A stretch of DNA of 64,000 nucleotides from an uncultured Candidatus Saccharibacteria bacterium (GCA_964414295.1 CAYPVU010000010.1:6937-70936); one strand, 5' to 3'. Counted from the first letter of the stretch, positions 4,900 to 52,885 are shown. Numbers and translations: made by a program. The notes: generated from the sequence alone by a model not told the origin.

Positions 4900-4949
4900 G
4901 AGTATATAGTGGTAGACTAAATAGGAATATTTAGTTTACCACTTGTACA

Positions 4950-5804: not shown

Positions 5805-5827
5805 CTAATTCTAAATAAAGTTGTTGA

Positions 5828-5857
5828 AGCGGGCCTCAAAGAGGCCCGCTTTTGTGT
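5828..5857 (+). terminator. Rho-independent terminator after the HEPN-NTase gene
   Basis: Perfect GC-rich hairpin agcgggcctc-aaa-gaggcccgct followed by TTTGTGTT. Confidence 0.7.
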
Positions 5858-6004
5858 TCCAATACAAGGAATTTAAAGTAATAAACTGTAAGAATTAAGT
5901 AAGAGTTTATTATTAAATTAATTGCATTACTTATTAATGCATTAATTATGAAGCCCCCATAAATAGCTTTATATAAACTTCTTATTTAAACTTTAACTTT
6001 AATT

Positions 6005-37559: not shown

Positions 37560-37943
37560 ATGAATAAAAAAAGAGCTTTAGTTTTAACTATTGTTGCATT
37601 ACAAAGTCTTTTTATTACTATGCCCTTATTGGCTCAGGGACTTACTAATGTAAATCAGAACTTTCAAATTCCTAACCCTACCAGATACGGAGACCTTGAA
37701 GATATTATAAATGCAGCTACTTCTTTAATTCGACCTGTATTTATAATAACTTTTGCTGCCATGGTTTTATATGGAGGATGGGTTAGATTAACATCTCAAG
37801 GTAATCCAGATAAAATTAAATCCAGCTCTCAAATTATAGTTGCTGCAATTGTTGGATTTGCAATCGCTGTATTTGCTCCTACAATAGTAGACTTTGCTGG
37901 TAGATTATTAGGGGTAAGCGGAGGTTTAATTGGCGAACGATAA
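37560..37943 (+). CDS. Pilin-like secreted two-helix protein, paralogue 1 (VirB2/TrbC-like architecture)
   Basis: Signal peptide ...PLLA|QG, hydrophobic helix, loop RLTSQGNPDKIK, second hydrophobic helix; 127 aa. Confidence 0.5.
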   Translation: MNKKRALVLTIVALQSLFITMPLLAQGLTNVNQNFQIPNPTRYGDLEDIINAATSLIRPVFIITFAAMVLYGGWVRLTSQGNPDKIKSSSQIIVAAIVGFAIAVFAPTIVDFAGRLLGVSGGLIGER

Positions 37944-37944
37944 T

Positions 37945-38547
37945 ATGAAGAAAGCTTTATTACTAACAATCATTTCTTTTTTAACAATAGGGATTGTTGT
38001 TAATGCACAGACGGGGAGTGGTCAATGCGATGCTCCTTATTATATTCCTTCTGCTTGTCCAGCTCCATATAGGCCGGGAATAAGCGGGGGTTATACTGCA
38101 GACTTAAATTGTCAATTAGAAAAATTTACAGATCCTCAAAGTAACTGTTGTCCAAATAAATGTGTAACTGCAGATGGTTCATCAAATGCTGGAGCGCAAA
38201 ATCCAGACTTATTTTGGGATATAGATGTTTTTGGTACCGTTATGAGAATTAATCCTGACAATACACCTGTTCTTATTAATATACTATTTACCACGGTTTT
38301 AGGCTTAGTATCTTTATATGCTATTGTTAGGGGGATCTATGTTACTGGTGTAAAAAGAACAATGGCTACTACTCCTGACGAAATTGCAGAAATAAATAAA
38401 GAACTTACAAACCTTATTATAGGTGCAGCTCTTTGTTGGGGGTTCATAATCTTAATACAAGTGGTTGCAAACTTCTTAGGTGTTGGTTCTTTAAGCAGTT
38501 TAGATTTTAGTAGCGGAGATTCCGGTACTGTTATTATTGTAAATTAA
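37945..38547 (+). CDS. Pilin-like secreted protein, paralogue 2 (Cys-rich variable region)
   Basis: Start set at MKKALLL, immediately after the upstream stop. Signal peptide ...VNA|QT; eight Cys in the variable segment; two hydrophobic helices. Confidence 0.45.
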   Translation: MKKALLLTIISFLTIGIVVNAQTGSGQCDAPYYIPSACPAPYRPGISGGYTADLNCQLEKFTDPQSNCCPNKCVTADGSSNAGAQNPDLFWDIDVFGTVMRINPDNTPVLINILFTTVLGLVSLYAIVRGIYVTGVKRTMATTPDEIAEINKELTNLIIGAALCWGFIILIQVVANFLGVGSLSSLDFSSGDSGTVIIVN

Positions 38548-39113
38548 TGAAAAAATTTATTATTGTATCTTTATTAATTTTGTTTCTTTCTCCAATTACA
38601 ATCTTTGCTCAAGATAGGTCAGGAGGGAGTGCAAATTCAACTACCTCTACACAAGATATTGATGATGAAATTGGGTTAAGAGAAATTAGAATTCCTATTT
38701 TTAGTAGTTTTATAGATTTTGATACTGAGAATGCAAGTATTTTTAGTTGGATATCGTTTATCGGATCTTTAGCTACAATTGGCTTAGTAGTTTTTTGGAT
38801 ATTTTTATTAGTTAAAGCAGGTGTAAAGGGAATGCAAAGCCAAGGAAATGCTGAGAACTTAACTGGGGCATTTAAGCAGGTGCAATCCGTATTGATTGGG
38901 GCCGCTGTAACGCTTTTCTTTCCATTTGTTTTGAGTTTAATAGGACTCTTTTTTGGTATAGGTACTATTTTTAGCTGGCCAAAGATGTTTCAATTATGCG
39001 ATAAGTCATCAAATCCAAATGGATTTGACTTTTATTTTCAATATTTAATCAGTATTGGATCAGAAGGCGATGAAGCTGCCGCTGAAAGCGCTTGTAATCC
39101 ACTAGGAACATAA
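38547..39113 (+). CDS. Pilin-like secreted protein, paralogue 3
   Basis: TAATG overlap. Signal peptide ...IFA|QD; helix, loop MQSQGNAENL, helix; C-terminal Cys pair. Confidence 0.45.
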   Translation: MKKFIIVSLLILFLSPITIFAQDRSGGSANSTTSTQDIDDEIGLREIRIPIFSSFIDFDTENASIFSWISFIGSLATIGLVVFWIFLLVKAGVKGMQSQGNAENLTGAFKQVQSVLIGAAVTLFFPFVLSLIGLFFGIGTIFSWPKMFQLCDKSSNPNGFDFYFQYLISIGSEGDEAAAESACNPLGT

Positions 39114-39116
39114 TTT

Positions 39117-39551
39117 ATGAGAAAAATTATATTAATCATTTTTATTTCTTTACTAAGTTTAATTCCGGTGAGTATTAAAGCTCAATCTGCATCTGAATTC
39201 CTTCCTTGTAATCAGTACGATCCAAGTGTATTTGATGCTTGCGGTACAAATGTAAATGATCAAGTAACTAATTTAATAAAGGTTGCAATTTCTGCGGTTT
39301 TTGCTTTAATAGTATTGTACGGTATTTTCTTGATAATTAAAGCAGCACTTACTATAATAAGAAGCAATGGAGACCCAGGACAGGTGCAAAGTGGAGCAGA
39401 TATTTTAAGAGGTGTATACATTGGTATTGGAATTATTTTTGTAGGTTTGATAGGATTAATAATCGTTATTGCATTTTTTGGTGCAGAGGGTATTTTGAGT
39501 ACTAATGTTAATACACCAGGAAATACAGTAATACCATTAATTACAAATTAA
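39117..39551 (+). CDS. Pilin-like secreted protein, paralogue 4
   Basis: Signal peptide ...IKA|QS; Cys pair; helix-loop-helix core IKAALTIIRSNGDPGQVQSG...FVGLIGLIIVIAFFGAEG. Confidence 0.5.
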   Translation: MRKIILIIFISLLSLIPVSIKAQSASEFLPCNQYDPSVFDACGTNVNDQVTNLIKVAISAVFALIVLYGIFLIIKAALTIIRSNGDPGQVQSGADILRGVYIGIGIIFVGLIGLIIVIAFFGAEGILSTNVNTPGNTVIPLITN

Positions 39552-39573
39552 TTTAATTTATTAAATAAATCTT

Positions 39574-40068
39574 ATGTTTAAAAATAAGACTTTAGTAGCA
39601 GTAATGATGGGAGCTTTTCTATTGGCAGCGCCATTAGTATCTCCTTTATTAACTGCAAAAGCAGATAACTTAATCTGTACAGTTTTCCCATTTATCAATA
39701 GTGTTACAGCTTTTGGTATTAATGCATTATGTTCAGAAGGTGGAATTAGTGCAGATACAACAAGTAATACAATTAGAAGTACATTCAACTTAATTGTATC
39801 TTTAATCTTTGTTGCAATTATTATCTTCTCAATTTACGTAATAATTAAAGCAGCTATTAAATACATTAGAAGTGAAGGTGATCCAGCTAAAATTGAAGAA
39901 GCTCAAAAAGCAATTAAATCTGTATTCATTGGTATTGCAGCTTTATTTGTAGGATTAATCGGAATTATTATTGTTATTGCATTCTTTGGTGCAGGTGGAG
40001 CATTAAACTCGGATCAAAATGCAGTAAATACAAGTCCATTATTAAACTCAATCTTAAACGGAAATTAA
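39574..40068 (+). CDS. Pilin-like secreted protein, paralogue 5
   Basis: Core nearly identical to paralogue 4: IKAAIKYIRSEGDPAKIEEAQK...FVGLIGIIIVIAFFGAGG. Confidence 0.5.
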   Translation: MFKNKTLVAVMMGAFLLAAPLVSPLLTAKADNLICTVFPFINSVTAFGINALCSEGGISADTTSNTIRSTFNLIVSLIFVAIIIFSIYVIIKAAIKYIRSEGDPAKIEEAQKAIKSVFIGIAALFVGLIGIIIVIAFFGAGGALNSDQNAVNTSPLLNSILNGN

Positions 40069-40084
40069 TTAATTTTAATTTCTT

Positions 40085-40113
40085 AAAGCCCGCCTTTTGG
40101 CGGGCTTTTTTTT
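40085..40113 (+). terminator. Rho-independent hairpin within the pilin-like array (possible attenuator after paralogue 5)
   Basis: aaagcccgcc-tttt-ggcgggcttt followed by a T8 run. Confidence 0.6.
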
Positions 40114-40177
40114 ATCTTCTTGATAAGCTATTATCTTTAATCTATAGTGTATTGAGTATTAATGTTATTATCTTCTC

Positions 40178-40990
40178 ATGAATAAAAAGAAAAAATTAGT
40201 TTATTTACTTCTTTTGCTTAATCTCTTTTTTGGTCAATTTGCGGTAGTACATGCACAATTACAGACCTTTGATTTCTCCGCCAATAATCCAGAAAGCTAC
40301 CAATGTTTTAATAAAGAAACAGGAGAGATATTAGATATACCCGTTGAGCCAACTCCGGACGAATTTGGTAATTACTATTGTAATAATGGAGGAACTAGAG
40401 TTATAGCTCAATTAAAACCTCCTACACTCCAGCAATTAGAAGTTTGGTTTGTTAGAATTTTATACGCAATTTGGGGTCTTGTGGCTTCTTTATCCTTTCT
40501 ATTCTTAGTTAAGTTAGGATACGAATACACAATATCTAGAGGGGACCCTACAAAGATAACAGAAGTAAGAAAAAGAATTGTAAGTTATTTAATAGGTTTT
40601 GCTCTTGTATTTTTAGCTGTCCCAATATTAACTACAGTATTTAGATTGTTAGGCATTAATACTAATGCGCAGTGTTATAACGTTAATATGCCTGGCTTTA
40701 GATTCTTTTATGCTACATTATGTACCGACCCTAAGGGAGTGATCGCATCTAAATTTGCCTCTAATCCGTGTCAGGCATTTATTGATGGAGAAGCGCCAGA
40801 AGGTATTACTTGTAGCGGAACTCCTTATGCGGGTGGTGCACCAGTTACATGTGGTGTAGTTGGTTTAGCTTCAATTTCATTAACATGCCAAGTTCAAGAA
40901 GGAGATAGCCCAGGTGCATCAACGTGGTGTAGAACATCAACTTTATTTGGCTTTTGCTCATCATCGTGTAACCCATCGGGTTGTCCATAA
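40178..40990 (+). CDS. Pilin-like secreted protein, paralogue 6, with extended Cys-rich C-terminal domain
   Basis: Signal peptide ...VHA|QL; helix-loop ISRGDPTKITEVRK-helix; about 120-aa C-terminal tail with 12 Cys. Confidence 0.45.
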   Translation: MNKKKKLVYLLLLLNLFFGQFAVVHAQLQTFDFSANNPESYQCFNKETGEILDIPVEPTPDEFGNYYCNNGGTRVIAQLKPPTLQQLEVWFVRILYAIWGLVASLSFLFLVKLGYEYTISRGDPTKITEVRKRIVSYLIGFALVFLAVPILTTVFRLLGINTNAQCYNVNMPGFRFFYATLCTDPKGVIASKFASNPCQAFIDGEAPEGITCSGTPYAGGAPVTCGVVGLASISLTCQVQEGDSPGASTWCRTSTLFGFCSSSCNPSGCP

Positions 40991-42489
40991 TGATTCAATT
41001 TATTAGTTTAAAAAAAAATAACGTTCAAATTAATTTATTGGAAAGTTCAATAGATTTGAACACGCTTGAAGATCTTGTTAAATTACTTAATAGGGATTCT
41101 AGTATTGATATTGAATTAGCATTTAAAATTAATAAAGCTAATAGATCAGAGCAGTTTTTAATAAATAAGACTTCAATTTTAAAAGAGGGAAATGTAATAG
41201 AAGAGAATTCTTTTTTTAATCTAGTAAAAGCTGAACTAGGAATTATTTTAGATGCTAATATTCTAAAAAGTAGATTCCTAGAAGCAAGTAGTTTAAATGA
41301 TCTAGAAGCTTCTTTCAATTCTTTAAACTTAACAACTGATCCAGAGTTAGAAACTAAGATAAACTCTAAAACTCAACAACAAACAGAATTAAAAACTCAA
41401 CTTCTTAATACTTTAGATGAAGATCAAAAGAGTAAATTTACTAGATTAGAAGAGGTTACTCAGAGGATTGCATCTATTCAGGTTCAGGTAGATTTTTACC
41501 AAAATGAAAAGAAAATAAAAGAAGAACTTAATAGTAATATAAAAAAATATAAGATTGATAAAGAAAATATCAATCAAATGCTTCAATCCGTAGAGTTGTT
41601 AATAGAAAATAAAGAATCGTTAAATTTAAAACTAAAGTCCTTTGAGCAATTTAGTGATTCTTACGATAAAGTTAAGGAATTAAAAGCTCAAAAAATCAAC
41701 TATCTGAACTCTAAATTATCTATAAGACATTCACCTGGATCCTCAATTTTAGAAGACGATATTAAGGAAGCTGAAAATAAATCTAGTTCACTAAATTTAT
41801 TCTTAGTAATTCCAATTATAAATTTATTGATAACATTTGTAGTTTTTTTAGTTACTTATAATGCAGCGGTACTTTTAATCGGAATCCTTTTTACTGTATT
41901 CTTAATGATTATTTATATTGTATCTAGATTTTTTAAAGATTCATTAGAAGATGTTGAAGAATTAAATAATAAAGCATTTTCTCCCCAAGCGGATTCTAAA
42001 GAAGGTGTTGCAGAAGTAGAAGACCCAAATACTCAATTATTTATAAATAGTGCATGGGCTAAAGCAATAAAAGATGAATTAGAAGTTGTAGATGAAAATA
42101 TTACAAAAAGCTTAAATGGGAAGTCTTATGAGGCTCTAAAGCAGGATCTTACAAATTTAGATTTAAATATAGAAAAAGAAAATAATAAATTGGAAGAGTT
42201 AACTCAAAAAGCAATAACCTCAGATGAGTACTATAAAAAAAGAAGAGAAATAGATATTTTAAAAATCGAAAAAGAGAATCTGGAATATGGTTTAAAGTTA
42301 GAGCCTACCATAAATAATAAAATACAAGATTTATCAAAAGAAATAGAAAATTTAAAGCTATTAACAGAAATGGGACAGAAAACTAATGCTTTAGTGCCCG
42401 TTTTTATCAAATTTAGTGAGAATTTGCCTCAAATTGAGCAAATTAAGCAAATAATTAGTGCACAGGTAATTCTCGTAGGGTTAAATTAA
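40981..42489 (+). CDS. Coiled-coil membrane protein (central TM hairpin)
   Basis: Long heptad-rich N- and C-terminal regions flank an approximately 45-aa hydrophobic segment LFLVIPIINLLITFVVFLVTYNAAVLLIGILFTVFLMIIYIV; overlaps the upstream gene by 10 nt. Confidence 0.45.
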   Translation: MSIMIQFISLKKNNVQINLLESSIDLNTLEDLVKLLNRDSSIDIELAFKINKANRSEQFLINKTSILKEGNVIEENSFFNLVKAELGIILDANILKSRFLEASSLNDLEASFNSLNLTTDPELETKINSKTQQQTELKTQLLNTLDEDQKSKFTRLEEVTQRIASIQVQVDFYQNEKKIKEELNSNIKKYKIDKENINQMLQSVELLIENKESLNLKLKSFEQFSDSYDKVKELKAQKINYLNSKLSIRHSPGSSILEDDIKEAENKSSSLNLFLVIPIINLLITFVVFLVTYNAAVLLIGILFTVFLMIIYIVSRFFKDSLEDVEELNNKAFSPQADSKEGVAEVEDPNTQLFINSAWAKAIKDELEVVDENITKSLNGKSYEALKQDLTNLDLNIEKENNKLEELTQKAITSDEYYKKRREIDILKIEKENLEYGLKLEPTINNKIQDLSKEIENLKLLTEMGQKTNALVPVFIKFSENLPQIEQIKQIISAQVILVGLN

Positions 42490-42504: not shown

Positions 42505-43290
42505 ATGTCTAATAATACCTCAGGTAATCAGAATAATGGAGAAAATAACGGATCTAATAATTCGTTTAGCTACCCACAGCCTGTTTATCCTGGAAGTATG
42601 GCAAACCCATTTAACGGGTATTACTATTATCCTTCTAATATGCAACAACCACAAAATAATAGAGATTACATATTAAAGATGAGAGAGCAGGAGGCTAATA
42701 AAATTGTTCCAGAAAAAAAAGGAATGCCTTGGTCTTCAATTATTTTAAAGCCTAATTTAGTATTCGAAACACAAAATCCTAACGAAAAGGTTTTTGTTTT
42801 AGTAAGGGCACATTGGTTAACTAATCTAGGATGGTTTTTAAGAAATCTTTTCTTAGCAATTCTTCCATTTATAGTATTCTCTTTACTAGAATATTTCGGA
42901 ATTCGAATTGATTTAACCTTTATAGGCAGTAAAGCTTCTACAATCTTAGGACTGCTTTATTATTCTTTTATATTTACAAGTATAGTAAGTAACTTTATTG
43001 ACTGGTATTTTGACCCATTTATAGTTACTGATATTCGTATAATGGATTATGACTATAAGCCTTATTCAAATTATAAAGTTTCCGAAGTTAACTTACAGGA
43101 TATTCAAGAAGTAAAGGAAAGATCTGCAGGTTTAATTGGAGATATCTTTAATTTTGGAAACGTTTATATCTATAGTGCCAGCGATAGAACAGAAATGATT
43201 TGTTCTAACGTGCCTTCACCTACAAAAGTTAGAGATATTATTATCGATTTATCTACCGTAGCTAAAACATATAAATATGACAATCTCTGA
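42505..43290 (+). CDS. Membrane protein with Asn/Gln-rich N-terminus, TM pair and bacterial PH-like (bPH_2/YdbS-like) C-domain (tentative)
   Basis: Two TM helices followed by a region DIRIMDYDYKPYSNYKVSEVNLQDIQEVKERSAGLIGDIFNFGNVYIY resembling bPH_2 proteins. Confidence 0.4.
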   Translation: MSNNTSGNQNNGENNGSNNSFSYPQPVYPGSMANPFNGYYYYPSNMQQPQNNRDYILKMREQEANKIVPEKKGMPWSSIILKPNLVFETQNPNEKVFVLVRAHWLTNLGWFLRNLFLAILPFIVFSLLEYFGIRIDLTFIGSKASTILGLLYYSFIFTSIVSNFIDWYFDPFIVTDIRIMDYDYKPYSNYKVSEVNLQDIQEVKERSAGLIGDIFNFGNVYIYSASDRTEMICSNVPSPTKVRDIIIDLSTVAKTYKYDNL

Positions 43291-43498
43291 ACTATTAACA
43301 CCTGAAATAATTGAGTTTATTAAAGTTATTGCAATTATTATTGGATTAGTACATTTATTAGCTGGATTTATATTAGTATTCCAGACTTTTAGAATGAATC
43401 GAATTATAAAAACCCCGAATGCTCCTATTTTTAGTATTATTGCAATTGTCTACATTGCTGTATTAATGGCTACGTTAATTTTAATCTTGAGTGCATAG
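43277..43498 (+). CDS. Small two-TM membrane protein
   Basis: 73 aa, two hydrophobic helices; overlaps the upstream gene by 14 nt. Confidence 0.35.
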   Translation: MTISELLTPEIIEFIKVIAIIIGLVHLLAGFILVFQTFRMNRIIKTPNAPIFSIIAIVYIAVLMATLILILSA

Positions 43499-43554
43499 AA
43501 TACATTTTCTTTTTTGATATACTGTTTTAAGGATAGTTAATCTTTTTAAAGTAT

Positions 43555-46053
43555 ATGCATTTAAGAGCAGATTTTATTGTAGGAACTCAAACCTCTAATT
43601 CATGGTCAGGAGTATATGGTTTTAAACCAGAAGACTCTATTGAGCCGCTAGAACTTTTTGCCATTATTAAGTTGGAATCCCTTACCAGCGAAGACAGATT
43701 AGAGGCTCTGGCTAAAATGTTTTTAGATGAACTCCAAAACTATCTATTTAACGAAGGTAAAGAGGGAAACTATATAATTAGACTAGAAAATGCTGTTTGG
43801 AAAATGAAATCCAAAATGGAGTTGCTTTTATCTTCAGATGAAAGATATTCCCAAAATGGATTAGATATAGAAATTGCTCTTACTTTATTCGATAAGAATT
43901 TTCTTTACTTAGGTGTAATAGGCGAAAGCAAGATCTTTATTAAAAGAGAGGATAAATTTGTAGAGCTTTCTCAAGGTTTATCTGATGCAAACATGATGGG
44001 CTTCTTAAAAACAGGAAGTCTAGAACTGGAAGAAGGGGATAGACTGGTTTTAGCAACCAATACAGCTGCAGAACAAGGGCTGGGAAGTATAGAGGCTTCT
44101 GTTAATAATTTAAATATTCAAGCATTGTCATCATTAACTAGTGGAAAAGGTACTGCAGTACTACTTTTAGCAGATGAAAAAGATAATTGGACAGAAAAAG
44201 AAATTATAGATGAAGAGTTTATTCCAGAAACTCCTATTAATTTAGAAACTGAAGATAATCAACATCAAGAATCTGCCAAATTTATACCTATTCAAGAAGA
44301 AGATTTTGAAGATAATACCGAATATATTGCTACAGAGTCAAACGAAGAAGAGTTAAACCTACAGCCATTAGAAGATAAAATTATTCCCGTAGAGAGGGAG
44401 GAAGTTGTTTTAAATACTAATATAACAGAATTGAATGAAAATGAATTACCAAAAGGAAAGGTCTTATTAAATTCAGTAGGGAGTAAATTATCTTCAAGTA
44501 TGAGGGTAGGGGCAAGTAAACTTACTGATTTACGCACGAGAATGAAAAGAGTTCCCCTAGAAAACGCAACTGAATTTAATAATGACATAGATAATTCAGT
44601 AGAGATTAAAGAATCAAAAGTAGGTTCAGTACTCACTAAAACTGCACCGATTCTAAATTCTATACAATCCTTTGTGCAAAACAAGTTAATGCCTTTCTTT
44701 AAAAAAAGTAATAAAACATATATTAAATATTTAAGAGATTTTGTTTTACTTGTAGTTGGATTAATTAAAAAATTCGTGGCATGGTTTAAAAAAGAATTTA
44801 TTGGTGGAGGAGTTGATGATAGAAGGAATATTTTTGAAAAAGCAAAAAAAAGAAAAAGAAATAGAATTATTTTAATTGTACTTGTAGTTATTTTGGCAAT
44901 ATTAATTGTATCAGCGATTAATAATAGAAATGCACAATTAAGGGAACAGGAAAGAATCGATACTGCTAGATCAAATGTAGATCAATATAAATCTGAACTA
45001 GACAATTTAGTAAGACAAGCAAATAGTAATCTTAATGATACTCAGAAAAATACTGTAATAGATCAGTTAGATAAACTAAACACTAGTTTAGAAACACAAA
45101 AAAGACAGGATTTATTTATAGATGAAATTGCAAATTATCAAACAACCATTACCAAAACAAAAGATAAAGTTTTAGGTGTTGTTGGCTTTACGGACCCACA
45201 AATGGTTGCAGATATTGGGAAAATCTATTCAGATGCAAATTTAATAGATATGGTTTATACGGATGGTAATTTATATGTGGGAGATAAGGCAAGAAATGCA
45301 ATATATCAAGTAGGAACAAATATAAATTCTCAGGTATCTCAATTTGCAACTGGTTTAAATGCCCCATATACAATGACAGTAAATGCGGCAGGAGACATTA
45401 TTTTCTTTGATTCAGATAGTACAAGTGCTGTAGGTAGAATATTTGTGGGGGAAAATGGCAGAATTGAAAGATATCCTGGATTAGCTCCTGCAGTTATTGG
45501 CACTGTTACTAAATCAGCAGTTTTTAGTGGTAATGATGCCTTATATGAATTACATCAAAATCATCAGCAGATATATAAAAGAGAAAAAGCAGGTGAAGAT
45601 TATACTAGTGGAGGAGCAGTATATAACACACAAAATCCACCAAACTGGAAAACAGACCCAGAGTTGGGAAGTGCAATAGATATAGATATCCCTTACGAGA
45701 TTTATGTTTTGATAAGAGGTAAAGGATTAAGAAGATATTTAGCTGGGGAAGCAAATACAATCTCTAAAGAAACCTTTGTAAATACTTCTCAAAAAGATAT
45801 TGACTCATTAGCATCTGCCACTGCATTTGACATAGATGGTAAACTATTGGCAGTTGCTGATCCAACAAACAGAAGAGTACTTTTATTCAGAATTGAAGAT
45901 AATGATGCTAAAACTTTGGCATACGAGAAATCTTATGTATATAGAGGTAATGACTCTACAACCTTTAAAAATATTAAAGAAATAGTTGTGAATGAATCAA
46001 GTAAGTATATCTTTGTATTGGATGGCACAGGAATAATAAGATTAGATATTTAA
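43555..46053 (+). CDS. Large bitopic membrane protein with cytoplasmic N-domain and C-terminal beta-propeller/NHL-like repeat region
   Basis: TM NRIILIVLVVILAILIVSAI near residue 440. C-terminal repeats (DGNLYVGDKARNAIYQV; GDIIFFDSDSTSAVGRIFV; LAVADPTNRRVLLF) suggest a beta-propeller. Confidence 0.45.
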   Translation: MHLRADFIVGTQTSNSWSGVYGFKPEDSIEPLELFAIIKLESLTSEDRLEALAKMFLDELQNYLFNEGKEGNYIIRLENAVWKMKSKMELLLSSDERYSQNGLDIEIALTLFDKNFLYLGVIGESKIFIKREDKFVELSQGLSDANMMGFLKTGSLELEEGDRLVLATNTAAEQGLGSIEASVNNLNIQALSSLTSGKGTAVLLLADEKDNWTEKEIIDEEFIPETPINLETEDNQHQESAKFIPIQEEDFEDNTEYIATESNEEELNLQPLEDKIIPVEREEVVLNTNITELNENELPKGKVLLNSVGSKLSSSMRVGASKLTDLRTRMKRVPLENATEFNNDIDNSVEIKESKVGSVLTKTAPILNSIQSFVQNKLMPFFKKSNKTYIKYLRDFVLLVVGLIKKFVAWFKKEFIGGGVDDRRNIFEKAKKRKRNRIILIVLVVILAILIVSAINNRNAQLREQERIDTARSNVDQYKSELDNLVRQANSNLNDTQKNTVIDQLDKLNTSLETQKRQDLFIDEIANYQTTITKTKDKVLGVVGFTDPQMVADIGKIYSDANLIDMVYTDGNLYVGDKARNAIYQVGTNINSQVSQFATGLNAPYTMTVNAAGDIIFFDSDSTSAVGRIFVGENGRIERYPGLAPAVIGTVTKSAVFSGNDALYELHQNHQQIYKREKAGEDYTSGGAVYNTQNPPNWKTDPELGSAIDIDIPYEIYVLIRGKGLRRYLAGEANTISKETFVNTSQKDIDSLASATAFDIDGKLLAVADPTNRRVLLFRIEDNDAKTLAYEKSYVYRGNDSTTFKNIKEIVVNESSKYIFVLDGTGIIRLDI

Positions 46054-46055
46054 AC

Positions 46056-46511
46056 ATGAAAGTCCTAGCCAGTAATAAAAAGGCCTATTTTGATTTTGAT
46101 ATACTTGAAAATATTGTAGCAGGTATTAGTCTAGTTGGATGGGAAGTAAAATCAATTAAAGCAGGCAAAATAAGTTTAAATGGTGCTTACATTAAAGTAT
46201 TAAATGGAGAGATGTACTTAGAGAATGCAGTTGTGCCTTCGCTTAAATACACTCCTAACGTTTCTCAGCATCAAGAAAGCAGAAAAAGGAAGTTGTTGCT
46301 TACTAAAAGACAAATCTCTGTATTAACTGCAAATGCTAAACAACCCGGAAATACAATTGTCCCCTTAGAAGTAGTAGAAAATGATTCCGGATTAATAAAA
46401 GTAAATGTAGCATTAGTAAAGGGTAGAAAAAAGTTTGATAAAAGAGAGAAGTTAAAAGAAAAAGATATTCAGAAACGAATTAATTTTGAAAGAAAAAAGT
46501 ATAATATTTAA
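46056..46511 (+). CDS. smpB: SsrA-binding protein SmpB
   Basis: VAGISLVGWEVKSIKAGKISLNGAYI...RKRKLLLTKRQI, the SmpB signature; 151 aa. Confidence 0.85.
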   Translation: MKVLASNKKAYFDFDILENIVAGISLVGWEVKSIKAGKISLNGAYIKVLNGEMYLENAVVPSLKYTPNVSQHQESRKRKLLLTKRQISVLTANAKQPGNTIVPLEVVENDSGLIKVNVALVKGRKKFDKREKLKEKDIQKRINFERKKYNI

Positions 46512-46513
46512 AT

Positions 46514-47065
46514 ATGAGCAACTCCAATCAGACTTTAAAACAAAATAATGAAGAAAATTTAAAATTAGTAGAAAGATTTGGATTTAAATTTTTTGGATAT
46601 GATGAGAATTCTTTTACTCTTGTAGTTGCTCCAAATGGTCAAATAGTACCCTTGAATGTGGCGTATGAGTTTGTACAAACTCAAATTGCTAATTCTCAAA
46701 CATTTTCTGGAGGCGGAATGGAAGGAATGCCAAATATGCCAACTATGCCCACACTCCCCGAAGCTAAAGTTGAATCAAAGGTTGAGTCAGCTATAGAAAA
46801 TAGGATAGAGAAAAAACAAGAGAGTACAAATGATAATAATCAAACCCAGCAAACAGTATCTGCAACTCCTAAACAGGAGCCTGCTAAAAAAACTGAATTA
46901 GAATCTCCTTATGGAGATGGATTTAAAACTCCTATTAATCCTGCTTATATCGAAAAGGCTTTAGACTATATAAAAAGAAATAGCAAAAAATCATTAAGCT
47001 CTACTTCTAAATGGCTTTCTGTTCAATTTGAGAAATTTATTTCCGAACAGAATTCTGGCAAATAA
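46514..47065 (+). CDS. Hypothetical protein (Met/Pro-rich linker)
   Basis: No signal peptide or TM helix; no recognisable motif. Confidence 0.35.
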   Translation: MSNSNQTLKQNNEENLKLVERFGFKFFGYDENSFTLVVAPNGQIVPLNVAYEFVQTQIANSQTFSGGGMEGMPNMPTMPTLPEAKVESKVESAIENRIEKKQESTNDNNQTQQTVSATPKQEPAKKTELESPYGDGFKTPINPAYIEKALDYIKRNSKKSLSSTSKWLSVQFEKFISEQNSGK

Positions 47066-47124
47066 TTCTTACTTAACTGCAGAGGGAAAATAATCTATAA
47101 TAAAGCGAATTATATATTTAATAA

Positions 47125-49584
47125 ATGTTTTCAGGACAGAATATTACAAATTTCAACACTACAGTTGATACTTCATGGGTTCAAGGAGCCGTAATCTTTT
47201 TACTTGTTCTACTTGTAGTATTAGTTGTCTTGGGCATAGTAATTGCCAAGTTTTTACAGAACTTTAAACAAGAAGTTTTAAAGAAAAAGGGGTTAAATCT
47301 TGTTTTTTATGAAGTAAAACTCCCCAAATCTAATGATGTAGAAATTAGAGCTGCAGAGCAAATGTTCACTGGTCTTATTGGTATAGGAGAGGAATTAAAA
47401 GGGTTTAAAAAGTTTGTAGGGGCAAGAAAGTTTGTAAGCTTTGAGATAGTTGCATTTAAAGAATCAATTAAGTTTTATGTTGTTTGTCCAAAAAGTATTT
47501 CTAATATTGTAGATAGGCAAATTAATGGAACCTACCCATTAGCAGAAATTAATCAGGTAAAGGAATATAATCTATTTCCAGATGGAGCATTTACTTCTTA
47601 TACATCTCTTAAGTTAGAAAAAGATACTAAAATTCCTTTTCAAACATATGAGGAACTTGCCGTAGATTCAATTGGAACAATAACTGATATTTTTAGTAAA
47701 CTACAAGAAAACGAAGGTGCTGTCTTTCAGGTTGTAATAACACCTGCCGGATCTGGTTGGAGAAATGAAGCTAAGTCTTTAGTTAAAAAGCTTAGAGAAC
47801 CAGCTAAAGAAGGAGAGACTGCTTCTAAGCCTAAATTTAATGATGATACTATTTCTTTAATTGATAAAAAAGCAGATAAATCTGGATTTTATACAGATAT
47901 AAGAATTGTATGTGTTTCCGATACAAAATTTGGTGCTGATTCTAATTTAGCCAATATTTTAAGTGTATTTGATCAATTCTTAAAAGAAGCAGGGAATCGA
48001 TTTAAGAAAACAAAAGAATCTGATTTAGGAAATTTTGCAGAAGACGTTATTTATAGAATTCCTAGGCTTTCAATGGTCTTAAATACTGCTGAACTGGCAA
48101 CTATTTTCCATTTCCCAAATAAAAATGTAACTTCTCCTCATATTAAATGGATGCTTGCTAAAAAGGCCCCGGCTCCAGATTTTGTAGCAAGTAATTACCA
48201 ACAAGACTATATGTATATTGGTAGAAACTCATTTAGAGGTCAATTTAAAGAAATATTCATAAAACCTGAAGATAGATTAAGGCATATGTATGTAATAGGT
48301 CAGACTGGTACTGGTAAATCGGGTTTTATGTCTGGAATGATGATAAGAGATATGAAACTAGGCCATGGTTGTGGTTATATTGACCCCCACGGCACAGATG
48401 CGGAGAAAATATTACAACAGGTTCCTCCTGAAAGAGTTGAAGATGTAATAATTTTTGATCCATCTGATTTAGAAAGACCTGTAGGATTGAACATGCTAGA
48501 GTTTTCAAATCCTGCACAACGTACACTTGTTACAAACGAAATGTTAAATATATTTGATACTTTGTATAACCTTAAAACAACCGGAGGTCCAATGTTTGAA
48601 CAGTACTTTAGGTATGCAATTATGCTTTTAACAGATGATGTAGAATCAGGCTCTACATTAATGGAGATCCCTAAGATCTTTGCAGATGACGGTTATAGAA
48701 ACTATAAACTTTCAAAATGTACCGACCAGGAAGTTATAGACTTCTGGAGAAAACAGGCAGAACAAGCAACAGGCGATGTGGGGTTAAAAAATGTAACCCC
48801 ATATGTTGTTTCTAAACTTGCACCATTTTTAACTAATCAATATGTAAGACCTATTATTGCACAGCAAACTTCTACAATAAATTTTAGAAAGATAATGGAT
48901 GAAGGCAAGATCCTGATTGTAAAACTTACTAAAGGTAGAATTGGAGATTTAAACGCTGCACTACTAGGTATGATTATTATTGGTAAGTTACTAATTGCTG
49001 CTTTAGAAAGAGAAGGTACAGATGAAAAATCAAGAAATCCATTTTATCTGTACATTGATGAGTTTCAAAACTATCTTACAGATGGAATTATGACAATTTT
49101 AGCTGAAGCTAGAAAGTACAGACTTTCCTTAACAATGGGACATCAATTCATAGGTCAGTTAACAAGAGAAGGTGGAAATACAAAAATTAGGGATGCTGTA
49201 TTTGGTAATGTAGGAAACAAAGCTATTTTTAGAGTAGGTGAGGATGATGCTGCATTCTTAAAGAAGGTTATTGGTGAAGGTTTTGAAGAACTTGATTTAC
49301 AGCAAATAGAAAACTTTAATTTTTATCTAAAAATGTTAGCAGACGGTAAGCCAACTCCAGCTTTTACAGCAAGATCTTTTTATGGTGATTCTAAATACGA
49401 TATGATAGGTTCATCAAGCTCTCAGATTGCCGATGTAGCTAAACAAATTTCTAGACTTCGTTATGGTAAAGATAGAAACATAATTGAAAATGAGATTAAA
49501 TTAAGAGGTACATTTATTAAAGAAAAAACAGAGGAAGAAAAGAAACCTGCTTCCTTATTTGGTGGCGGATTAGGCGGATTCTAG
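47125..49584 (+). CDS. Membrane-anchored P-loop ATPase of the FtsK/HerA/VirB4 (DUF87-like) superfamily
   Basis: N-terminal TM VIFLLVLLVVLVVLGIVIA. Walker A HMYVIGQTGTGKSGF...GYIDPHG, Walker B FYLYIDEFQNY, and the downstream ARKYRLSLTMGHQFIGQL block typical of VirB4/TraC/HerA-like ATPases. Confidence 0.65.
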   Translation: MFSGQNITNFNTTVDTSWVQGAVIFLLVLLVVLVVLGIVIAKFLQNFKQEVLKKKGLNLVFYEVKLPKSNDVEIRAAEQMFTGLIGIGEELKGFKKFVGARKFVSFEIVAFKESIKFYVVCPKSISNIVDRQINGTYPLAEINQVKEYNLFPDGAFTSYTSLKLEKDTKIPFQTYEELAVDSIGTITDIFSKLQENEGAVFQVVITPAGSGWRNEAKSLVKKLREPAKEGETASKPKFNDDTISLIDKKADKSGFYTDIRIVCVSDTKFGADSNLANILSVFDQFLKEAGNRFKKTKESDLGNFAEDVIYRIPRLSMVLNTAELATIFHFPNKNVTSPHIKWMLAKKAPAPDFVASNYQQDYMYIGRNSFRGQFKEIFIKPEDRLRHMYVIGQTGTGKSGFMSGMMIRDMKLGHGCGYIDPHGTDAEKILQQVPPERVEDVIIFDPSDLERPVGLNMLEFSNPAQRTLVTNEMLNIFDTLYNLKTTGGPMFEQYFRYAIMLLTDDVESGSTLMEIPKIFADDGYRNYKLSKCTDQEVIDFWRKQAEQATGDVGLKNVTPYVVSKLAPFLTNQYVRPIIAQQTSTINFRKIMDEGKILIVKLTKGRIGDLNAALLGMIIIGKLLIAALEREGTDEKSRNPFYLYIDEFQNYLTDGIMTILAEARKYRLSLTMGHQFIGQLTREGGNTKIRDAVFGNVGNKAIFRVGEDDAAFLKKVIGEGFEELDLQQIENFNFYLKMLADGKPTPAFTARSFYGDSKYDMIGSSSSQIADVAKQISRLRYGKDRNIIENEIKLRGTFIKEKTEEEKKPASLFGGGLGGF

Positions 49585-49587
49585 TAT

Positions 49588-50235
49588 ATGAAGTCTTTAT
49601 TCGATTCACCCACCGTAGAGTACTGCGAAAAAGCCATTGAAGGATTAATTTCAAGACCAGGCTATGCAGTATCTAACCTTCCTTTTATTATTTTGGGTAT
49701 TATTTTAATACTTAGAGCTAAAAATAATAAGCTTGCAAAGTTATTTGGTGTAAGTGCGATTATCATCGGACTATGTTCGTTTTATTACGATGCATCCTTT
49801 ACCTATCTATCGCAATATATCGACTGGTTAGGGATGTTTATCTTTATCCTTATCCTATCTTTACTAAATGTAAAAAGAATTATAAATATTAGTAATGCTA
49901 AGTTATATTTTTATGCATTCTTAATAATTATCTCCTATCTTTTATTAAGTTTTATTACTCAGCAAGGTACTTTATTCTTTGGAATAGGGGTTATTTTTGT
50001 AATCTTTTCAGAGATGTACCTACTGTATAAGGAACAAAGAAAGGTTGATATTAAGTGGTTGGTAGCTTTGCTATTGTTTCTAGTTGGGTTTATTGCTAGA
50101 AACTTAGATTTATACGGAATAATCTGCGATCCTTCAAATATAATTAATGGTAGAGGTATACTGCATTATCTATCTACGCTCTCTATATTCCTTTTGTATT
50201 TGTACTATACTAATATTAAGCATAAGTCAGAGTGA
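49588..50235 (+). CDS. Polytopic membrane protein (six to seven TM helices)
   Basis: Highly hydrophobic 215 aa; 3-nt gap to the ATPase gene. Confidence 0.45.
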   Translation: MKSLFDSPTVEYCEKAIEGLISRPGYAVSNLPFIILGIILILRAKNNKLAKLFGVSAIIIGLCSFYYDASFTYLSQYIDWLGMFIFILILSLLNVKRIINISNAKLYFYAFLIIISYLLLSFITQQGTLFFGIGVIFVIFSEMYLLYKEQRKVDIKWLVALLLFLVGFIARNLDLYGIICDPSNIINGRGILHYLSTLSIFLLYLYYTNIKHKSE

Positions 50236-50310
50236 AAATTTTAAATCTTTTTGCTATACTTTGCTTGCTTTTACAGCAAATCTTGAACATTAATAGTAAG
50301 TATTTTTAAT

Positions 50311-50384
50311 AGGCCTGTAGCTCAGCTGGTTAGAGCACGGTTCTTATAAAGCCGGGGTCCGCAGTTCAAGTCTGCGCAGGCCTA
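50311..50384 (+). tRNA. tRNA-Ile with UAU anticodon
   Basis: Cloverleaf AGGCCTG/CAGGCCT acceptor, discriminator A, anticodon stem CGGTT/AGCCG, loop CTTATAA (34-36 = TAT). 5' half nearly identical to the tRNA-Ile(GAU) in the rRNA spacer. Confidence 0.65.
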
Positions 50385-50481
50385 TTTAGAATATTTAGAC
50401 TTCTATACAAATTTTTCTCTAAAATCGATTAGTTTGCATCAAACCTATTACTACATTAAACTATAGAGTAAAGTTTTTTGT

Positions 50482-51153
50482 ATGCTTAAACTAAATTCAT
50501 TATTAAAATTGTCCTTAATCTTGTTTGCAAGCTTATTAATTCCAAGCTTTTTATCACTATTTAAAATTTCTTTTGATGAATATATTGCAGCACAAAAGGG
50601 GCAGGGTAAGGTTCAGGGAGCAAGTGTAGTAAATGTTCGTACTGTAAATGGAAGAACACCTGACGGGGAAGAACAGTCTGTTATAGTTAATGTTAATCTG
50701 CCACGAATTGGGTCTATTAGAAATCTAAGTGAAAGGCCCTTCGCTTTCCCAAATGCAAAAGCTAATACTGAATCTCCTTTAGTTAATCTCCAAGCACCAT
50801 TATCCTACCCTGATGGCCCAAATAATCCTGTTTATATAATTTCTAAGGATGGTGGAAGAGGAGGGGATTCCTTTTTATTTGCATACGGCGGACTAAAAGG
50901 TAATTATCTATCTTTCTACAACGGAAACAATTACGATATGAATGATGTTAGGATTCAAATAAAATGGTCTAATGGAAACATTGAATATACAAGTATTTAT
51001 TCTACACAGCAAATTCAAAGAAAATTAGGATTTTACGTTGCCGTAAATAACTCTTCTGAGGCTAGTATCCCGTATAATCCCCAAATGAGGATTAAGGAAT
51101 TTTTAGTAAGATTTAAGGATAATGCGGGAATGGAGTATATTGCAGAATTTTAA
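50482..51153 (+). CDS. Hypothetical secreted protein
   Basis: Signal peptide; Gly/Asn-rich; no motif. Confidence 0.4.
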   Translation: MLKLNSLLKLSLILFASLLIPSFLSLFKISFDEYIAAQKGQGKVQGASVVNVRTVNGRTPDGEEQSVIVNVNLPRIGSIRNLSERPFAFPNAKANTESPLVNLQAPLSYPDGPNNPVYIISKDGGRGGDSFLFAYGGLKGNYLSFYNGNNYDMNDVRIQIKWSNGNIEYTSIYSTQQIQRKLGFYVAVNNSSEASIPYNPQMRIKEFLVRFKDNAGMEYIAEF

Positions 51154-52019
51154 AGCTCTACAAGCTTATTTTCAGGCCTTGCTTTATATTTCTTACTTAA
51201 TAATTCTAAATATCTTGTAGTTGTAGCAATGTTTTTATGCCCAACAATTTCTGCAAGAGTAGTTAAAGATATACCATTGCTTAGTTGATTTACTATAAAT
51301 GTATTTCTAAGATCATTTACGCAGGCATTTCTCACCTTTGCTTTGATTATTATTCTATCGATTGAGCCTCTAATATTCCTTACTTCTATACTTCTACCTG
51401 TTTTAGTACAGAATAGAGGGGAATTGGGCTTTTTAGCAAACTTGTGCTGTGCTAGATATGCTTTTAGTTCAGTCAATAACTTCCCATTAATTGGAACCTT
51501 TCTTTCATCATTGCTGCCAAATTGTTCTATTTGTACATAAGGTCTAGAACCGCTTAAATGTAGATCCTTTATTTTTATTCTTGAAAGCTCCCCAATTCTT
51601 ACACCGGTTTGAAGAAGAAATTCAATAATTACAAATATTTTATAATTATCTCTACTACATTCTTTTAGTGCTAAATATTCAGGTCTAGATAAAAATCGTT
51701 GTTTCTTTATTCTAAACTTAGGATGAGAAATATTTAAAGTAGGATTTGATTTAATATACTTTTTTTCCTCTAAAAACTTATAGAAAGTTCTTATGCTGTT
51801 CAGTTTTCTAGAAATTGTCTTTGCAGAAAGAGTATAGGTATTTTGTAAAAAGTTTAAACCATGTTTTATATCTGCTTCACTAAAATCTACTAAAGATTTA
51901 TTTAGATTGCTTTCTGCTAACTGACTTAAGTCATTTTTATAAGCTATTAGCGTTGACTTTGCTTTCCCCCTTCTTTTAAGGTAATTTATAAAGTCATTTA
52001 TTAATTTTTCAGTTTCCAT
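51150..52019 (-). CDS. Tyrosine recombinase (XerC/XerD-like)
   Basis: N-terminal core-binding helix pattern (KSTLIAYKNDLSQL); catalytic R...H-x-x-R...Y blocks (GVRIGELSRIK; LRNTFIVNQL; VGHKNIATTTRYLEL); 289 aa. Confidence 0.8.
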   Translation of the reverse strand: METEKLINDFINYLKRRGKAKSTLIAYKNDLSQLAESNLNKSLVDFSEADIKHGLNFLQNTYTLSAKTISRKLNSIRTFYKFLEEKKYIKSNPTLNISHPKFRIKKQRFLSRPEYLALKECSRDNYKIFVIIEFLLQTGVRIGELSRIKIKDLHLSGSRPYVQIEQFGSNDERKVPINGKLLTELKAYLAQHKFAKKPNSPLFCTKTGRSIEVRNIRGSIDRIIIKAKVRNACVNDLRNTFIVNQLSNGISLTTLAEIVGHKNIATTTRYLELLSKKYKARPENKLVEL

Positions 52020-52544: not shown

Positions 52545-52619
52545 CGCGGGGTAGAGCAGTGGCAGCTCGTCAGGCTCATAACCTGAAGGTCGTGCGTTCG
52601 AATCGTACCCCCGCAACCA
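52545..52619 (+). tRNA. tRNA-Met (CAU), initiator type
   Basis: Anticodon loop CTCATAA; C1 x A72 unpaired end (CGCGGGG vs CCCCGCA), which is characteristic of bacterial initiator tRNA; CCA encoded. Confidence 0.7.
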
Positions 52620-52701: not shown

Positions 52702-52775
52702 GTCAGGGTAGCTCAGAAGGTTAGAGCACAGGATTCATAAACCTGAGGTCGAGGGTTCGATTCCCTCCCCTGATA
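52702..52775 (+). tRNA. tRNA-Met (CAU), elongator type (alternatively an Ile2-type CAU tRNA)
   Basis: Cloverleaf GTCAGGG/CCCTGAT, anticodon loop TTCATAA, T-loop TTCGATT. Confidence 0.65.
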
Positions 52776-52885
52776 CTATTTATATCTATTCGGCATTTAA
52801 GACCATTATTTCCAAAGAACGTTTTTATAATAGACGTCATAAGATATAATAAATGTAGTTCCAATTTAATTATTCACTTAAATCT

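Follow-up and report, generated by a model that had tools for sequence, protein, structure and literature searches.

The gene at positions 47125..49584 (+ strand) of the window, the whole stretch of 64,000 nucleotides that was analysed, codes for an 819 amino acid ATPase which, on balance, we take to be a single-pass membrane-anchored motor of the VirB4/VirD4 (FtsK-HerA) clade. It would be a Patescibacteria-wide, chromosomally fixed homologue of the orphan coupling protein t4cp1, working as a T4SS-type ring, and the ceramidase-family gene downstream of it would be unrelated to secretion. The ATPase is a member of a known, uncharacterised family, encoded at an ordinary, syntenic locus, and does not define a new secretion machine. 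The bacterium is a Dojkabacteria-like member of the CPR, and the window, which has uniform GC content along its length and no compositional island, belongs to its core chromosome.

The ORF, assigned from Pfam and NCBIfam matches, homologues and an AlphaFold2 model, has the architecture that an earlier, sequence-only reading of the DNA had described: one TM helix, an N-domain of about 300 amino acids and a P-loop domain, with all of the quoted motifs. The single N-terminal TM helix (residues 22-40, 47188..47244, +) has a mean Kyte-Doolittle hydropathy of 3.68 over 19 residues, and is spanned by a long helix (residues 16-57) in the AlphaFold2 model. Sequence and model together suggest that this anchor is followed by a domain of about 270 amino acids, Pfam DUF8128, with a predicted VirB4-NTD-like alpha/beta fold (residues 59-330, 47299..48114, +), and then by a RecA-like P-loop nucleotide-binding domain (NBD, residues about 360-760, 48202..49404, +) in which the Walker A, Walker B and RK..Q motifs are all intact. 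An all-helical insertion of 130 amino acids (residues 463-592, 48511..48900, +), recognized from the secondary structure of the model, is predicted in the NBD, at the site which the all-alpha domain takes in T4CPs.

Residues were called invariant from an alignment of 35 sequences with identities down to 41%. The Walker A motif GQTGTGKS (residues 392-399, 48298..48321, +) lies in the stretch HMYVIGQTGTGKSGF (residues 387-401) and has G392, T394, G395, G397 and K398 invariant, as are D420 to G423 of the DPHG motif (residues 420-423). Walker B (...LYIDE, residues 641-646, 49045..49062, +), with invariant L642, Y643, D645 and E646, runs into YIDEFQNY (residues 643-650). The ARKYRLSLTMGHQ motif (residues 662-674, 49108..49146, +), in which R663, K664, Y665 and Q674 are invariant, is the RK...Q motif common to T4CP, VirB4 and FtsK ATPases, and the HMMER alignments place this region against the RK..Q regions of TrwB and DotL.

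Coupling-protein profiles, not VirB4 profiles, recognize the ATPase by sequence. Three Pfam T4CP families matched marginally above their gathering cut-offs (PF10412, 22.6 bits against 20.5; PF12696, 22.6 against 22; PF02534, 21.6 against 20.1), and the NCBIfam T4CP models all scored far under theirs, for example SXT_TraD with 31 bits against 366. The VirB4 model TIGR00929 of NCBIfam reached 13.9 bits where its cut-off is 643.1, and the VirB4 Pfam families PF03135, PF12846 and PF19044 gave no match to the ATPase at E ≤ 0.1. A profile search of the PDB with the ATPase returned DotL and TrwB only, and no VirB4 chain was matched in the PDB profile searches at E ≤ 10; the search with the single sequence found nothing in the PDB. 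The only PDB matches of the N-domain profile search were to ribosome-recycling factor and were judged spurious. The order of the domains, an N-terminal membrane anchor and then a RecA-like NBD that has both Walker motifs, is that of a T4CP.

The models were confident, with pLDDT values of 86.8, for the AlphaFold2 model of the ATPase, and 87.6. With the full-length model, TrwK chains came first among the Foldseek matches, in alignments of about 900 columns. The N-domain had the VirB4-NTD fold when predicted models were compared with the single solved full-length VirB4 structure, and for the NBD the fold comparison could not distinguish the VirB4 CTD from the T4CP NBD. The assignment of the ATPase to the VirB4/VirD4/HerA clade of P-loop ATPases, made earlier from its motifs, is thus borne out by the Pfam T4CP matches, the PDB profile matches and the Foldseek matches to TrwK.

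Precomputed matches to DUF8128 (PF26449) were found on homologues with 84-92% identity to the ATPase, from which we infer that the ATPase itself probably belongs to this Pfam family. The Pfam scan of the ATPase, in a copy of the database that may lack this model, gave no PF26449 match. No mention of DUF8128 was found in a literature search. There are more than 5,400 homologues of the ATPase, the close ones with precomputed PF26449 matches, and the family is present in at least 597 GTDB species of Microgenomates, Parcubacteria and ABY1, at full length and with 36-42% identity. The DUF8128 profile extends to 3,567 clusters at 50% identity, in which the domain is always N-terminal. Some of the DUF8128 proteins are about 1000 amino acids long. 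The family is CPR-wide, near-universal and chromosomally fixed. Its most likely counterpart in the literature is the set of orphan T4CP (t4cp1) homologues which Quinonero-Coronel et al. (2025, PMC12102498) described from 2,918 out of 3,035 Patescibacteria genomes, in most cases a long way from virB4; only 148 of the 5,713 T4CP homologues in that study were near virB4. The sequence-only reading had itself named universal presence without linkage to pilin-like genes as evidence against a secretion locus, and this is largely what was found, the linkage to pilins being limited to Dojkabacteria-type loci.

Across classes, with identities of 36-70%, the ATPase gene keeps the same position and the same neighbours, in a housekeeping synteny with the genes for SmpB, an XerC-like recombinase, FtsH and PolA. 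Such near-universal, vertically inherited placement, usually far from virB4 (PMC12102498), would suit a T4SS-independent housekeeping translocase which descended from T4SS ATPases and handles DNA or protein at the membrane, in division or Xer recombination, or serves another essential envelope process. We regard this as possible, if rather less probable than not. The XerC/D-like tyrosine recombinase gene (51150..52019, -; Pfam Phage_integrase and SAM-like domains) has been kept near the ATPase gene in Dojkabacteria and Microgenomates; among the 57 GTDB loci whose downstream flank is 3 kb or longer, 14 have it no more than 6.5 kb downstream. However, it is convergent with the ATPase gene and therefore not co-transcribed with it, ftsH and polA are equally syntenic, and the adjacency may reflect ancestral gene order. 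The essentiality of a possible counterpart would also speak for a housekeeping role: in S. epibionticum ML1 (Wang et al. 2023, PMC10633639, Tables S1 and S2), SEML1_0142, with the same annotation and domain layout as the ATPase, and the small gene upstream of it, SEML1_0141, were both scored essential and lie outside the T4SS cluster SEML1_0006-0019. The other candidate orthologue, SEML1_0293, was non-essential. Against such a role, the ATPase has neither an FtsK_SpoIIIE Pfam match nor a gamma domain, nor the multi-TM N-terminus of FtsK/SpoIIIE; a septal DNA translocase with a canonical FtsK gamma domain, the outcome which would have contradicted the earlier reading, was not seen. Also against it, solved structures show the VirB4-type N-domain as a docking module of the T4SS inner-membrane complex.

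Directly upstream of the ATPase gene is an ORF for a soluble, low-complexity protein of 183 amino acids (p183; 46514..47065, +), which had no match in Pfam, NCBIfam or PADLOC. It is a positionally conserved example of a small same-strand ORF which directly precedes the ATPase gene in 61 of 86 loci. These small ORFs fall into at least three sequence families, and an attempt to unite them in one common family did not succeed, the best hhalign comparison between them giving P 51% and E 1.5e-4. The smpB gene (46056..46511, +; Pfam SmpB, 152.5 bits) is part of a p261-DUF5657-p832-SmpB block that is kept in Dojkabacteria and Levyibacteria loci, and lies, as had been noted, between the ATPase gene and an array of pilin genes.

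This array consists of six VirB2-like T4SS pilin paralogues (37560..40990, +), 6.1 kb upstream of the ATPase gene. Pfam T4SS_pilin (PF18895, cut-off 26.6) matched above the cut-off for 37560-37943 and 40178-40990 (36.5 and 29.5 bits) and fell short of it, with 19.5-22.2 bits, for 37930-38547 and 39574-40068. In all six proteins two hydrophobic helices are joined by a (S/T)xG(D/N)Pxx loop, so the array reported earlier on the same strand is genuine. Relatives among the Dojkabacteria have it at the same upstream position. Outside Dojkabacteria-type loci, of the 37 loci whose flanks on both sides reach 8 kb or more, only one had a pilin-domain match, a count which divergent pilins may escape since the detector was built from the pilins of the window itself. 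The linkage of ATPase and pilin array is thus kept only within Dojkabacteria, and elsewhere the gene stands among housekeeping genes.

The suggestion that the pilin array and the ATPase gene may not form one transcription unit stands, since there is a strong intrinsic-terminator-like hairpin (40085..40108, +; 10-bp stem with 7 GC pairs, followed by a T-run) between pilin genes 5 and 6 and a promoter-like site, TTAACT-17-TATAAT (47073..47101, +; 10 of 12 consensus positions), within the 59 nt that precede the ATPase gene. Promoter-like sites are no commoner here than in shuffled sequence and 47073..47101 is a consensus match only; judged from the DNA, the ATPase gene probably has its own promoter.

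An ORF of 215 amino acids (49588..50235, +) starts 3 nt past the ATPase stop codon and, as had been described, codes for a polytopic protein, with six clear hydrophobic segments and a probable seventh, C-terminal one. The earlier reading saw in it the channel of a minimal pilin-ATPase-channel machine, which does not hold. The sole Pfam match of this 6-7 TM protein was Ceramidase (PF05875, 50.8 bits against a cut-off of 32.5, residues 9-181), with nothing of a VirB6/TrbL/PrgH-type channel, and it had no sequence match in the PDB. Its position is not conserved: the gene was found downstream only in a close relative whose ATPase is 84% identical, was absent at this position from three relatives at 42-70% identity, and had no homologue in the first 86 loci of the ATPase family. 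The protein appears from its sequence to be a lineage-specific neighbour related to lipid hydrolases and no T4SS component.

It is improbable that we have here a self-contained T4SS locus of pilins, ATPase and channel, with the ATPase as its canonical VirB4. The two-domain VirB4-like architecture, the nearby pilin array conserved in Dojkabacteria, and the scanned window ORFs, among which no other T4SS-type ATPase was found, are what such a locus would show. The lack of any VirB4 profile match to the ATPase, the ceramidase-family identity of the supposed channel and the hairpin and promoter-like site which separate the array from the ATPase gene argue against it. In addition, the patescibacterial VirB4 is another protein, a PF19044 member with its P-loop domain at about residues 226-585, encoded beside TrsD, VirB3 and VirB6, and Dojkabacteria are among the genomes which Table S1 of PMC12102498 lists as VirB4-positive, with a separate VirB4. 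The earlier statement that VirB6, VirB8, VirB9, VirB10 and relaxase homologues are absent agrees with the Pfam scan, which matched none of them in the scanned window ORFs (about 20.5-24.9 and 28.4-29.0 kb covered in part). Likewise, VirB3, VirB6, VirB8 and TrsD had no Pfam or NCBIfam match in these ORFs, apart from a weak TraL/VirB3-like match (E 0.034) on the ORF at 40981-42489. The 702 amino acid ORF at 30367-32475 was considered as a canonical VirB4 and rejected, as it is without Walker A. No VirB4-like ATPase was present within ±10 kb in the first 86 loci of the family; other ORFs with a Walker A motif in these loci, GPRGVGKT, were set aside as DnaX-like by motif and length alone.

It is very unlikely that the ATPase was left behind by an integrated conjugative or phage-like element. 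The tyrosine recombinase and a tRNA-Ile gene (50310-50385) lie downstream, the PHROG profile phrog_5156 matches at E 1.6e-80, with gp156 of Bacillus phage G aligning to residues 101-751 and proteins of SPO1-like phages to residues 248-752, and plasmids and viral contigs carry relatives with the C-domain only. A prophage or ICE was nevertheless rejected, on the uniform composition and the identical position and neighbours across classes. There is also no relaxase, among the scanned window ORFs, and no phage structural gene, and the IMG/VR matches begin at about residue 320 or later, without DUF8128, with one exception (24% identity) from residue 176. A role in defence, as an ATPase of the HerA, DptH or MADS type, to which a PADLOC mad8 match (3e-11) and a Bradyrhizobium plasmid homologue among CHAT and TPR genes would point, is just as hard to credit and was rejected, as no partner genes of such systems are nearby, the similarity is limited to the shared NBD, and the universal, single-locus, syntenic spread is unlike that of defence islands.

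In the reading that we prefer, an orphan T4CP-like motor, the ATPase would, by analogy with related motors, assemble as a ring on the cytoplasmic face of the membrane. Its VirB4-like N-domain may dock it to a VirB3/VirB6/VirB8-like platform of the patescibacterial T4SS or to the small upstream protein, and ATP hydrolysis could then drive a substrate through the membrane, or pilin subunits out of it. In this Dojkabacteria lineage the gene lies 6 kb past the pilin array, with unrelated conserved genes including smpB between them, and the 7-TM ceramidase-family hydrolase would be a recent gain of this lineage, outside any secretion machine. Coupling of the motor to a T4SS is weakened by the lack of linkage to T4SS genes outside Dojkabacteria-type loci.

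Patescibacteria depend on host bacteria. In the one genetically tractable species the T4SS-like pilus system is essential, reportedly without a recognizable coupling protein in its cluster. The ATPase family, being near-universal in CPR and combining, in the models, a VirB4-type docking domain with a coupling-protein-like motor, may offer a concrete candidate for the second ATPase that is missing there, or could instead serve a separate essential membrane translocation step. The predicted VirB4-NTD-like fold of DUF8128 would be a structural assignment at the level of the family and offers a testable handle. More speculatively, and with less confidence than the housekeeping role considered above, the DUF8128 ATPases might form a third, as yet undescribed lineage of T4SS-type motors, fusion-like hybrids which join a membrane anchor to a VirB4-type docking domain and to an NBD like that of coupling proteins, and which always have a small upstream protein as partner. 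They would then be a core, possibly essential CPR gene, either the missing coupling or pilin-extraction motor or a distinct engine for host-dependent uptake.

Among known systems, the ATPase family resembles the orphan T4CPs (t4cp1/VirD4-like) of Patescibacteria (PMC12102498), since both are near-universal in CPR, chromosomal, usually far from virB4 and detected by coupling-protein profiles. In that study, however, they were treated as profile matches only, and no N-terminal domain or small upstream ORF was described. The candidate orthologues in S. epibionticum, SEML1_0142 and SEML1_0293, are likened to the ATPase by annotation: they have the same NCBI names and a P-loop domain from about residue 361-381 after an unassigned N-region, and are longer (1019 and 921 amino acids). 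SEML1_0142 follows a small essential ORF, as the ATPase gene follows that of p183. The 'VirD4 component-like' proteins of Bacillus phage G (gp156) and SPO1-like phages are collinear with the ATPase over the residues given above, along a phrog_5156 profile of 824 positions, but are 22-24% identical and stand in a phage context.

VirB4 proteins (TrwK of R388, PDB 7o42/8rtd; the CTD of T. pseudethanolicus VirB4, 4ag5) differ from the ATPase in sequence profile, and the patescibacterial VirB4 proper is a separate PF19044 protein. Compared with these VirB4 proteins, the ATPase has an extra N-terminal TM helix and no adjacent VirB3, VirB6, VirB8 or TrsD. Compared with T4CPs (TrwB, 1e9r; DotL, 6sz9; Cag-beta, 8dol), it misses the NCBIfam equivalog cut-offs widely and has no linkage to a relaxase, among the scanned window ORFs, or to a T4SS; it has one TM helix where T4CPs usually have two, and a VirB4-like domain of 270 amino acids is placed between this anchor and the NBD.

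The 819-aa ORF at 47125-49584 (+) was confirmed from the sequence with all the motifs previously read in it, and its N-terminal transmembrane (TM) helix was recovered as a single strong TM segment at residues 22-40. In an alignment of 35 sequences, with identities down to 41 %, the Walker A residues G392, T394, G395, G397 and K398, the DPHG motif (residues 420-423), the Walker B residues D645 and E646 and an RK..Q motif (R663 to Q674) were invariant. The full-length AlphaFold2 model was confident (pLDDT 86.8). In it, a long N-terminal helix is followed by an alpha/beta domain (residues 59-330) and then by a RecA-like nucleotide-binding domain (NBD, about residues 360-760), which is interrupted by an all-helical insertion (residues 463-592).

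The sequence-only reading had placed this protein among the VirB4/TraC/TcpA/HerA-type (DUF87-like) ATPases. Judged by sequence profiles, the C-terminal half groups, though marginally, with type IV coupling proteins (T4CP). The Pfam families TrwB_AAD_bind, TraG-D_C and T4SS-DNA_transf matched it at 21.6-22.6 bits (cut-offs 20.1-22), and nearly all NCBIfam matches were to T4CP models, far below their cut-offs. Among PDB sequences the family profile matched only DotL (1.9e-5), TrwB (1.2e-3), a DnaA-related P-loop protein and HerA, and no VirB4 even at E <= 10. DUF87 scored below its Pfam cut-off, and the NCBIfam model VirB4_CagE reached 13.9 bits against a cut-off of 643. VirB4 and T4CP were not told apart by the fold of the C-domain, because the comparison figures were 28.5 for the VirB4 C-domain of T. 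pseudethanolicus, 27.7 for the DptH C-domain, 27.6 for TrwB, 25.0 for HerA, 23.4 for DotL, 22.5 for Cag-beta and 17.3 for the FtsK motor. PF26449 (DUF8128), of which the literature search found no mention, is precomputed on the N-domain of close homologues; a Pfam scan of the 819-aa protein itself returned no PF26449. The profile and model results therefore identify the ATPase as a TM-anchored protein of VirB4 architecture with an NBD sequence resembling coupling proteins.

The closest homologues of the ATPase carry the name Candidatus Dojkabacteria, and the window therefore belongs to the core chromosome of a bacterium of the CPR (Patescibacteria). Its GC content is ~31 %, with no compositional break near the ATPase locus, and cell-core genes are spread across it (ftsA, ftsZ, rpoD, parA, parB, ileS, the tmRNA gene, groES, groEL, clpB, smpB, ftsH, polA and an rRNA operon). 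A HEPN-nucleotidyltransferase fusion protein (4950-5804) and a sortase gene (2655-3518) lie amid housekeeping genes at the window start. A tRNA-Ile gene with anticodon UAU (50310-50385) adjoins the ATPase locus. Further downstream is a pair of tRNA genes (52545-52619 and 52702-52776), spaced by 80 nt, whose anticodons are both CAU.

More than 5,400 homologues of the ATPase were detected. Full-length relatives, 36-42 % identical over ~770 residues, were found in at least 597 species in GTDB contigs (one genome per species), including Levy-, Davies-, Woese- and Curtissbacteria, as well as Paceibacteria and Uhr-, Sung-, Wolfe-, Nomura-, Komeili- and Moranbacteria. Run against 1.84 billion representatives, the N-domain profile matched 3,567 clusters (50 % identity), always at about residues 40-400 of proteins of up to ~800-1,400 aa. 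Relatives of the C-domain only (24-34 % identity) were encoded by plasmids, mostly non-mobilizable ones, of proteobacteria, actinobacteria, Bacillus and archaea, and their N-terminal regions were unrelated to the ATPase N-domain. Those on alphaproteobacterial non-mobilizable plasmids (L089 and L088) had 34 % identity to the C-domain (E 2e-68) and an unrelated N-terminal half; the homologue on Bradyrhizobium plasmid p131_1 (L089, 7044-9170) sits amid CHAT-domain and TPR genes. The C-domain also matched PADLOC mad8, and matches in IMG/VR viral contigs were mainly C-domain-like. Collinear relatives were present in Bacillus phage G (gp156, JN638751.1; ATPase residues 101-751) and SPO1-like phages (residues 248-752), and phrog_5156 of PHROG (824 positions, function unknown) matched at E 1.6e-80. 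A Nomurabacteria locus (L081) has a 496-aa C-domain-only paralogue (4384-5874; E 6e-67 to the window C-domain) with T4CP Pfam matches, 4 kb upstream of a full-length DUF8128 ATPase and adjoining two unassigned ~570-aa proteins. Such paralogues may be the source of the approximately two T4CP hits per genome in the literature.

In Dojkabacteria-type loci, with ATPase identities from 84 % down to 42 %, the order ClpB, pilin array, coiled-coil TM protein, (SpoIID), p261, DUF5657, ~800-aa protein, SmpB, small protein, ATPase is conserved, followed by (variable genes), XerC-like (-), DivIC-like, FtsH and PolA. Dojkabacteria and Levyibacteria alike keep the p261-DUF5657-p832-SmpB block (42505-46511; L031, L033, L051) close to the ATPase, although in Levyibacteria it lies downstream rather than upstream of that gene; p261 has a weak bPH-like match and the DUF5657 protein is 73 aa long. 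No Pfam or NCBIfam assignment was obtained for the single-TM 832-aa protein of this block. Woese-, Davies- and Levyibacteria keep the order ATPase, XerC-like (-), FtsH, PolA, and in the Nomurabacteria locus the gene is flanked by those for methionine aminopeptidase and NDK, with DnaJ and an RNase-J-like gene nearby. The gene that immediately follows the pilin array (40981-42489), and keeps this position in Dojkabacteria relatives, encodes a coiled-coil protein of 502 aa that has one TM helix and a weak TraL (VirB3-like) NCBIfam match over the TM region (E 0.034).

The linkage of ATPase and pilins, earlier read, together with a channel, as the minimal signature of a type-IV-secretion-like or DNA-translocation machine, was rare outside Dojkabacteria-type loci: of 37 other loci flanked by 8 kb or more on each side, only one had a pilin-domain match within 10 kb, as scored with a detector made from the window's own pilins, which divergent pilins may escape. 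The flanks of the loci examined contained no second VirB4-like ATPase. Most lineages show no linkage between this gene and T4SS genes, which keeps a T4SS-independent housekeeping protein a serious alternative. The canonical VirB4, ICE or prophage, FtsK and defence-ATPase readings were each contradicted by the tested features.

The caution that the genes may not be one transcription unit was supported. A strong terminator-like hairpin (40085-40108; 10-bp stem with 7 GC pairs, T-run) separates the fifth and sixth genes of the six-gene VirB2-like array (37560-40990, +), a promoter-like TTAACT-17-TATAAT occurs in the 59-nt gap ahead of the ATPase, and the genes for p832, SmpB (46056-46511, +) and p183 are separated by just 3 nt; co-transcription of the pilin genes and the ATPase thus appears unlikely. 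A promoter-like site (40120-40148) follows the hairpin, and the sixth pilin-like gene, whose 270-aa product has a Cys-rich extension at its C-terminus, may form a unit of its own.

The polytopic protein encoded 3 nt after the ATPase stop (49588-50235; six to seven hydrophobic segments), suggested earlier as the channel, belongs to the Pfam family Ceramidase (PF05875; 50.8 bits, cut-off 32.5) and is not VirB6-like. Its gene follows the ATPase only in the close relative L087 (ATPase 84 % identical), other relatives having a different gene or none at this position, and no homologue was found in the first 86 loci. The gene is a recent neighbour specific to this lineage and may be co-transcribed with that of the ATPase.

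Across CPR classes, 61 of 86 loci had a small same-strand ORF, in the window p183 (46514-47065), immediately ahead of the DUF8128 ATPase. The small ORFs (90-280 aa, low-complexity) belong to at least three sequence families, which differ in their C-terminal motifs: ...RWLaeW..., ...WLkiIPGVNkFFlEQEAKIKTD... and ...DPYiLDafHDaL....

The earlier interpretation was thus partly supported, the observation itself being confirmed. The best-supported reading is that the ATPase is the Dojkabacteria copy of the CPR-wide orphan "T4CP homologue", refined, as the model suggests, to a putative VirB4-NTD-like docking domain and coupling-protein-like motor with a single TM anchor. From family knowledge, it would act as a membrane-associated ring ATPase, either in the patescibacterial T4SS/pilus or in a separate translocation step. 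Neither the VirB4-like fold of DUF8128 nor the small ORF conserved in position upstream appears to have been described in the literature searched, and these are the parts worth pursuing.

The locus belongs with systems already described in Patescibacteria, namely T4SS with VirB2-like pilin arrays and orphan T4CP homologues. VirD4-type T4CP homologues number 5,713 in 2,918 of 3,035 genomes, only 148 being near virB4 (PMC12102498). The same paper describes a Patescibacteria-specific, PF19044-type VirB4 clade adjoining TrsD, VirB3, VirB6 and VirB2 arrays, and scores Dojkabacteria genomes as VirB4-positive (Quinonero-Coronel et al. 2025). In S. epibionticum, the T4SS-like cluster SEML1_0006-0019 is essential and has a pilin series, without recognisable coupling or relaxase proteins (Wang et al. 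2023, PMC10633639). According to the supplementary tables of that study, SEML1_0142 (1019 aa, P-loop 381-800) is scored essential, as is the 139-aa ORF that precedes it, and SEML1_0293 (921 aa) is scored non-essential. By their table entries, both share the NCBI names and domain layout of the ATPase, and essential SEML1_0141 precedes SEML1_0142 in the same arrangement as the small upstream ORF and the ATPase.
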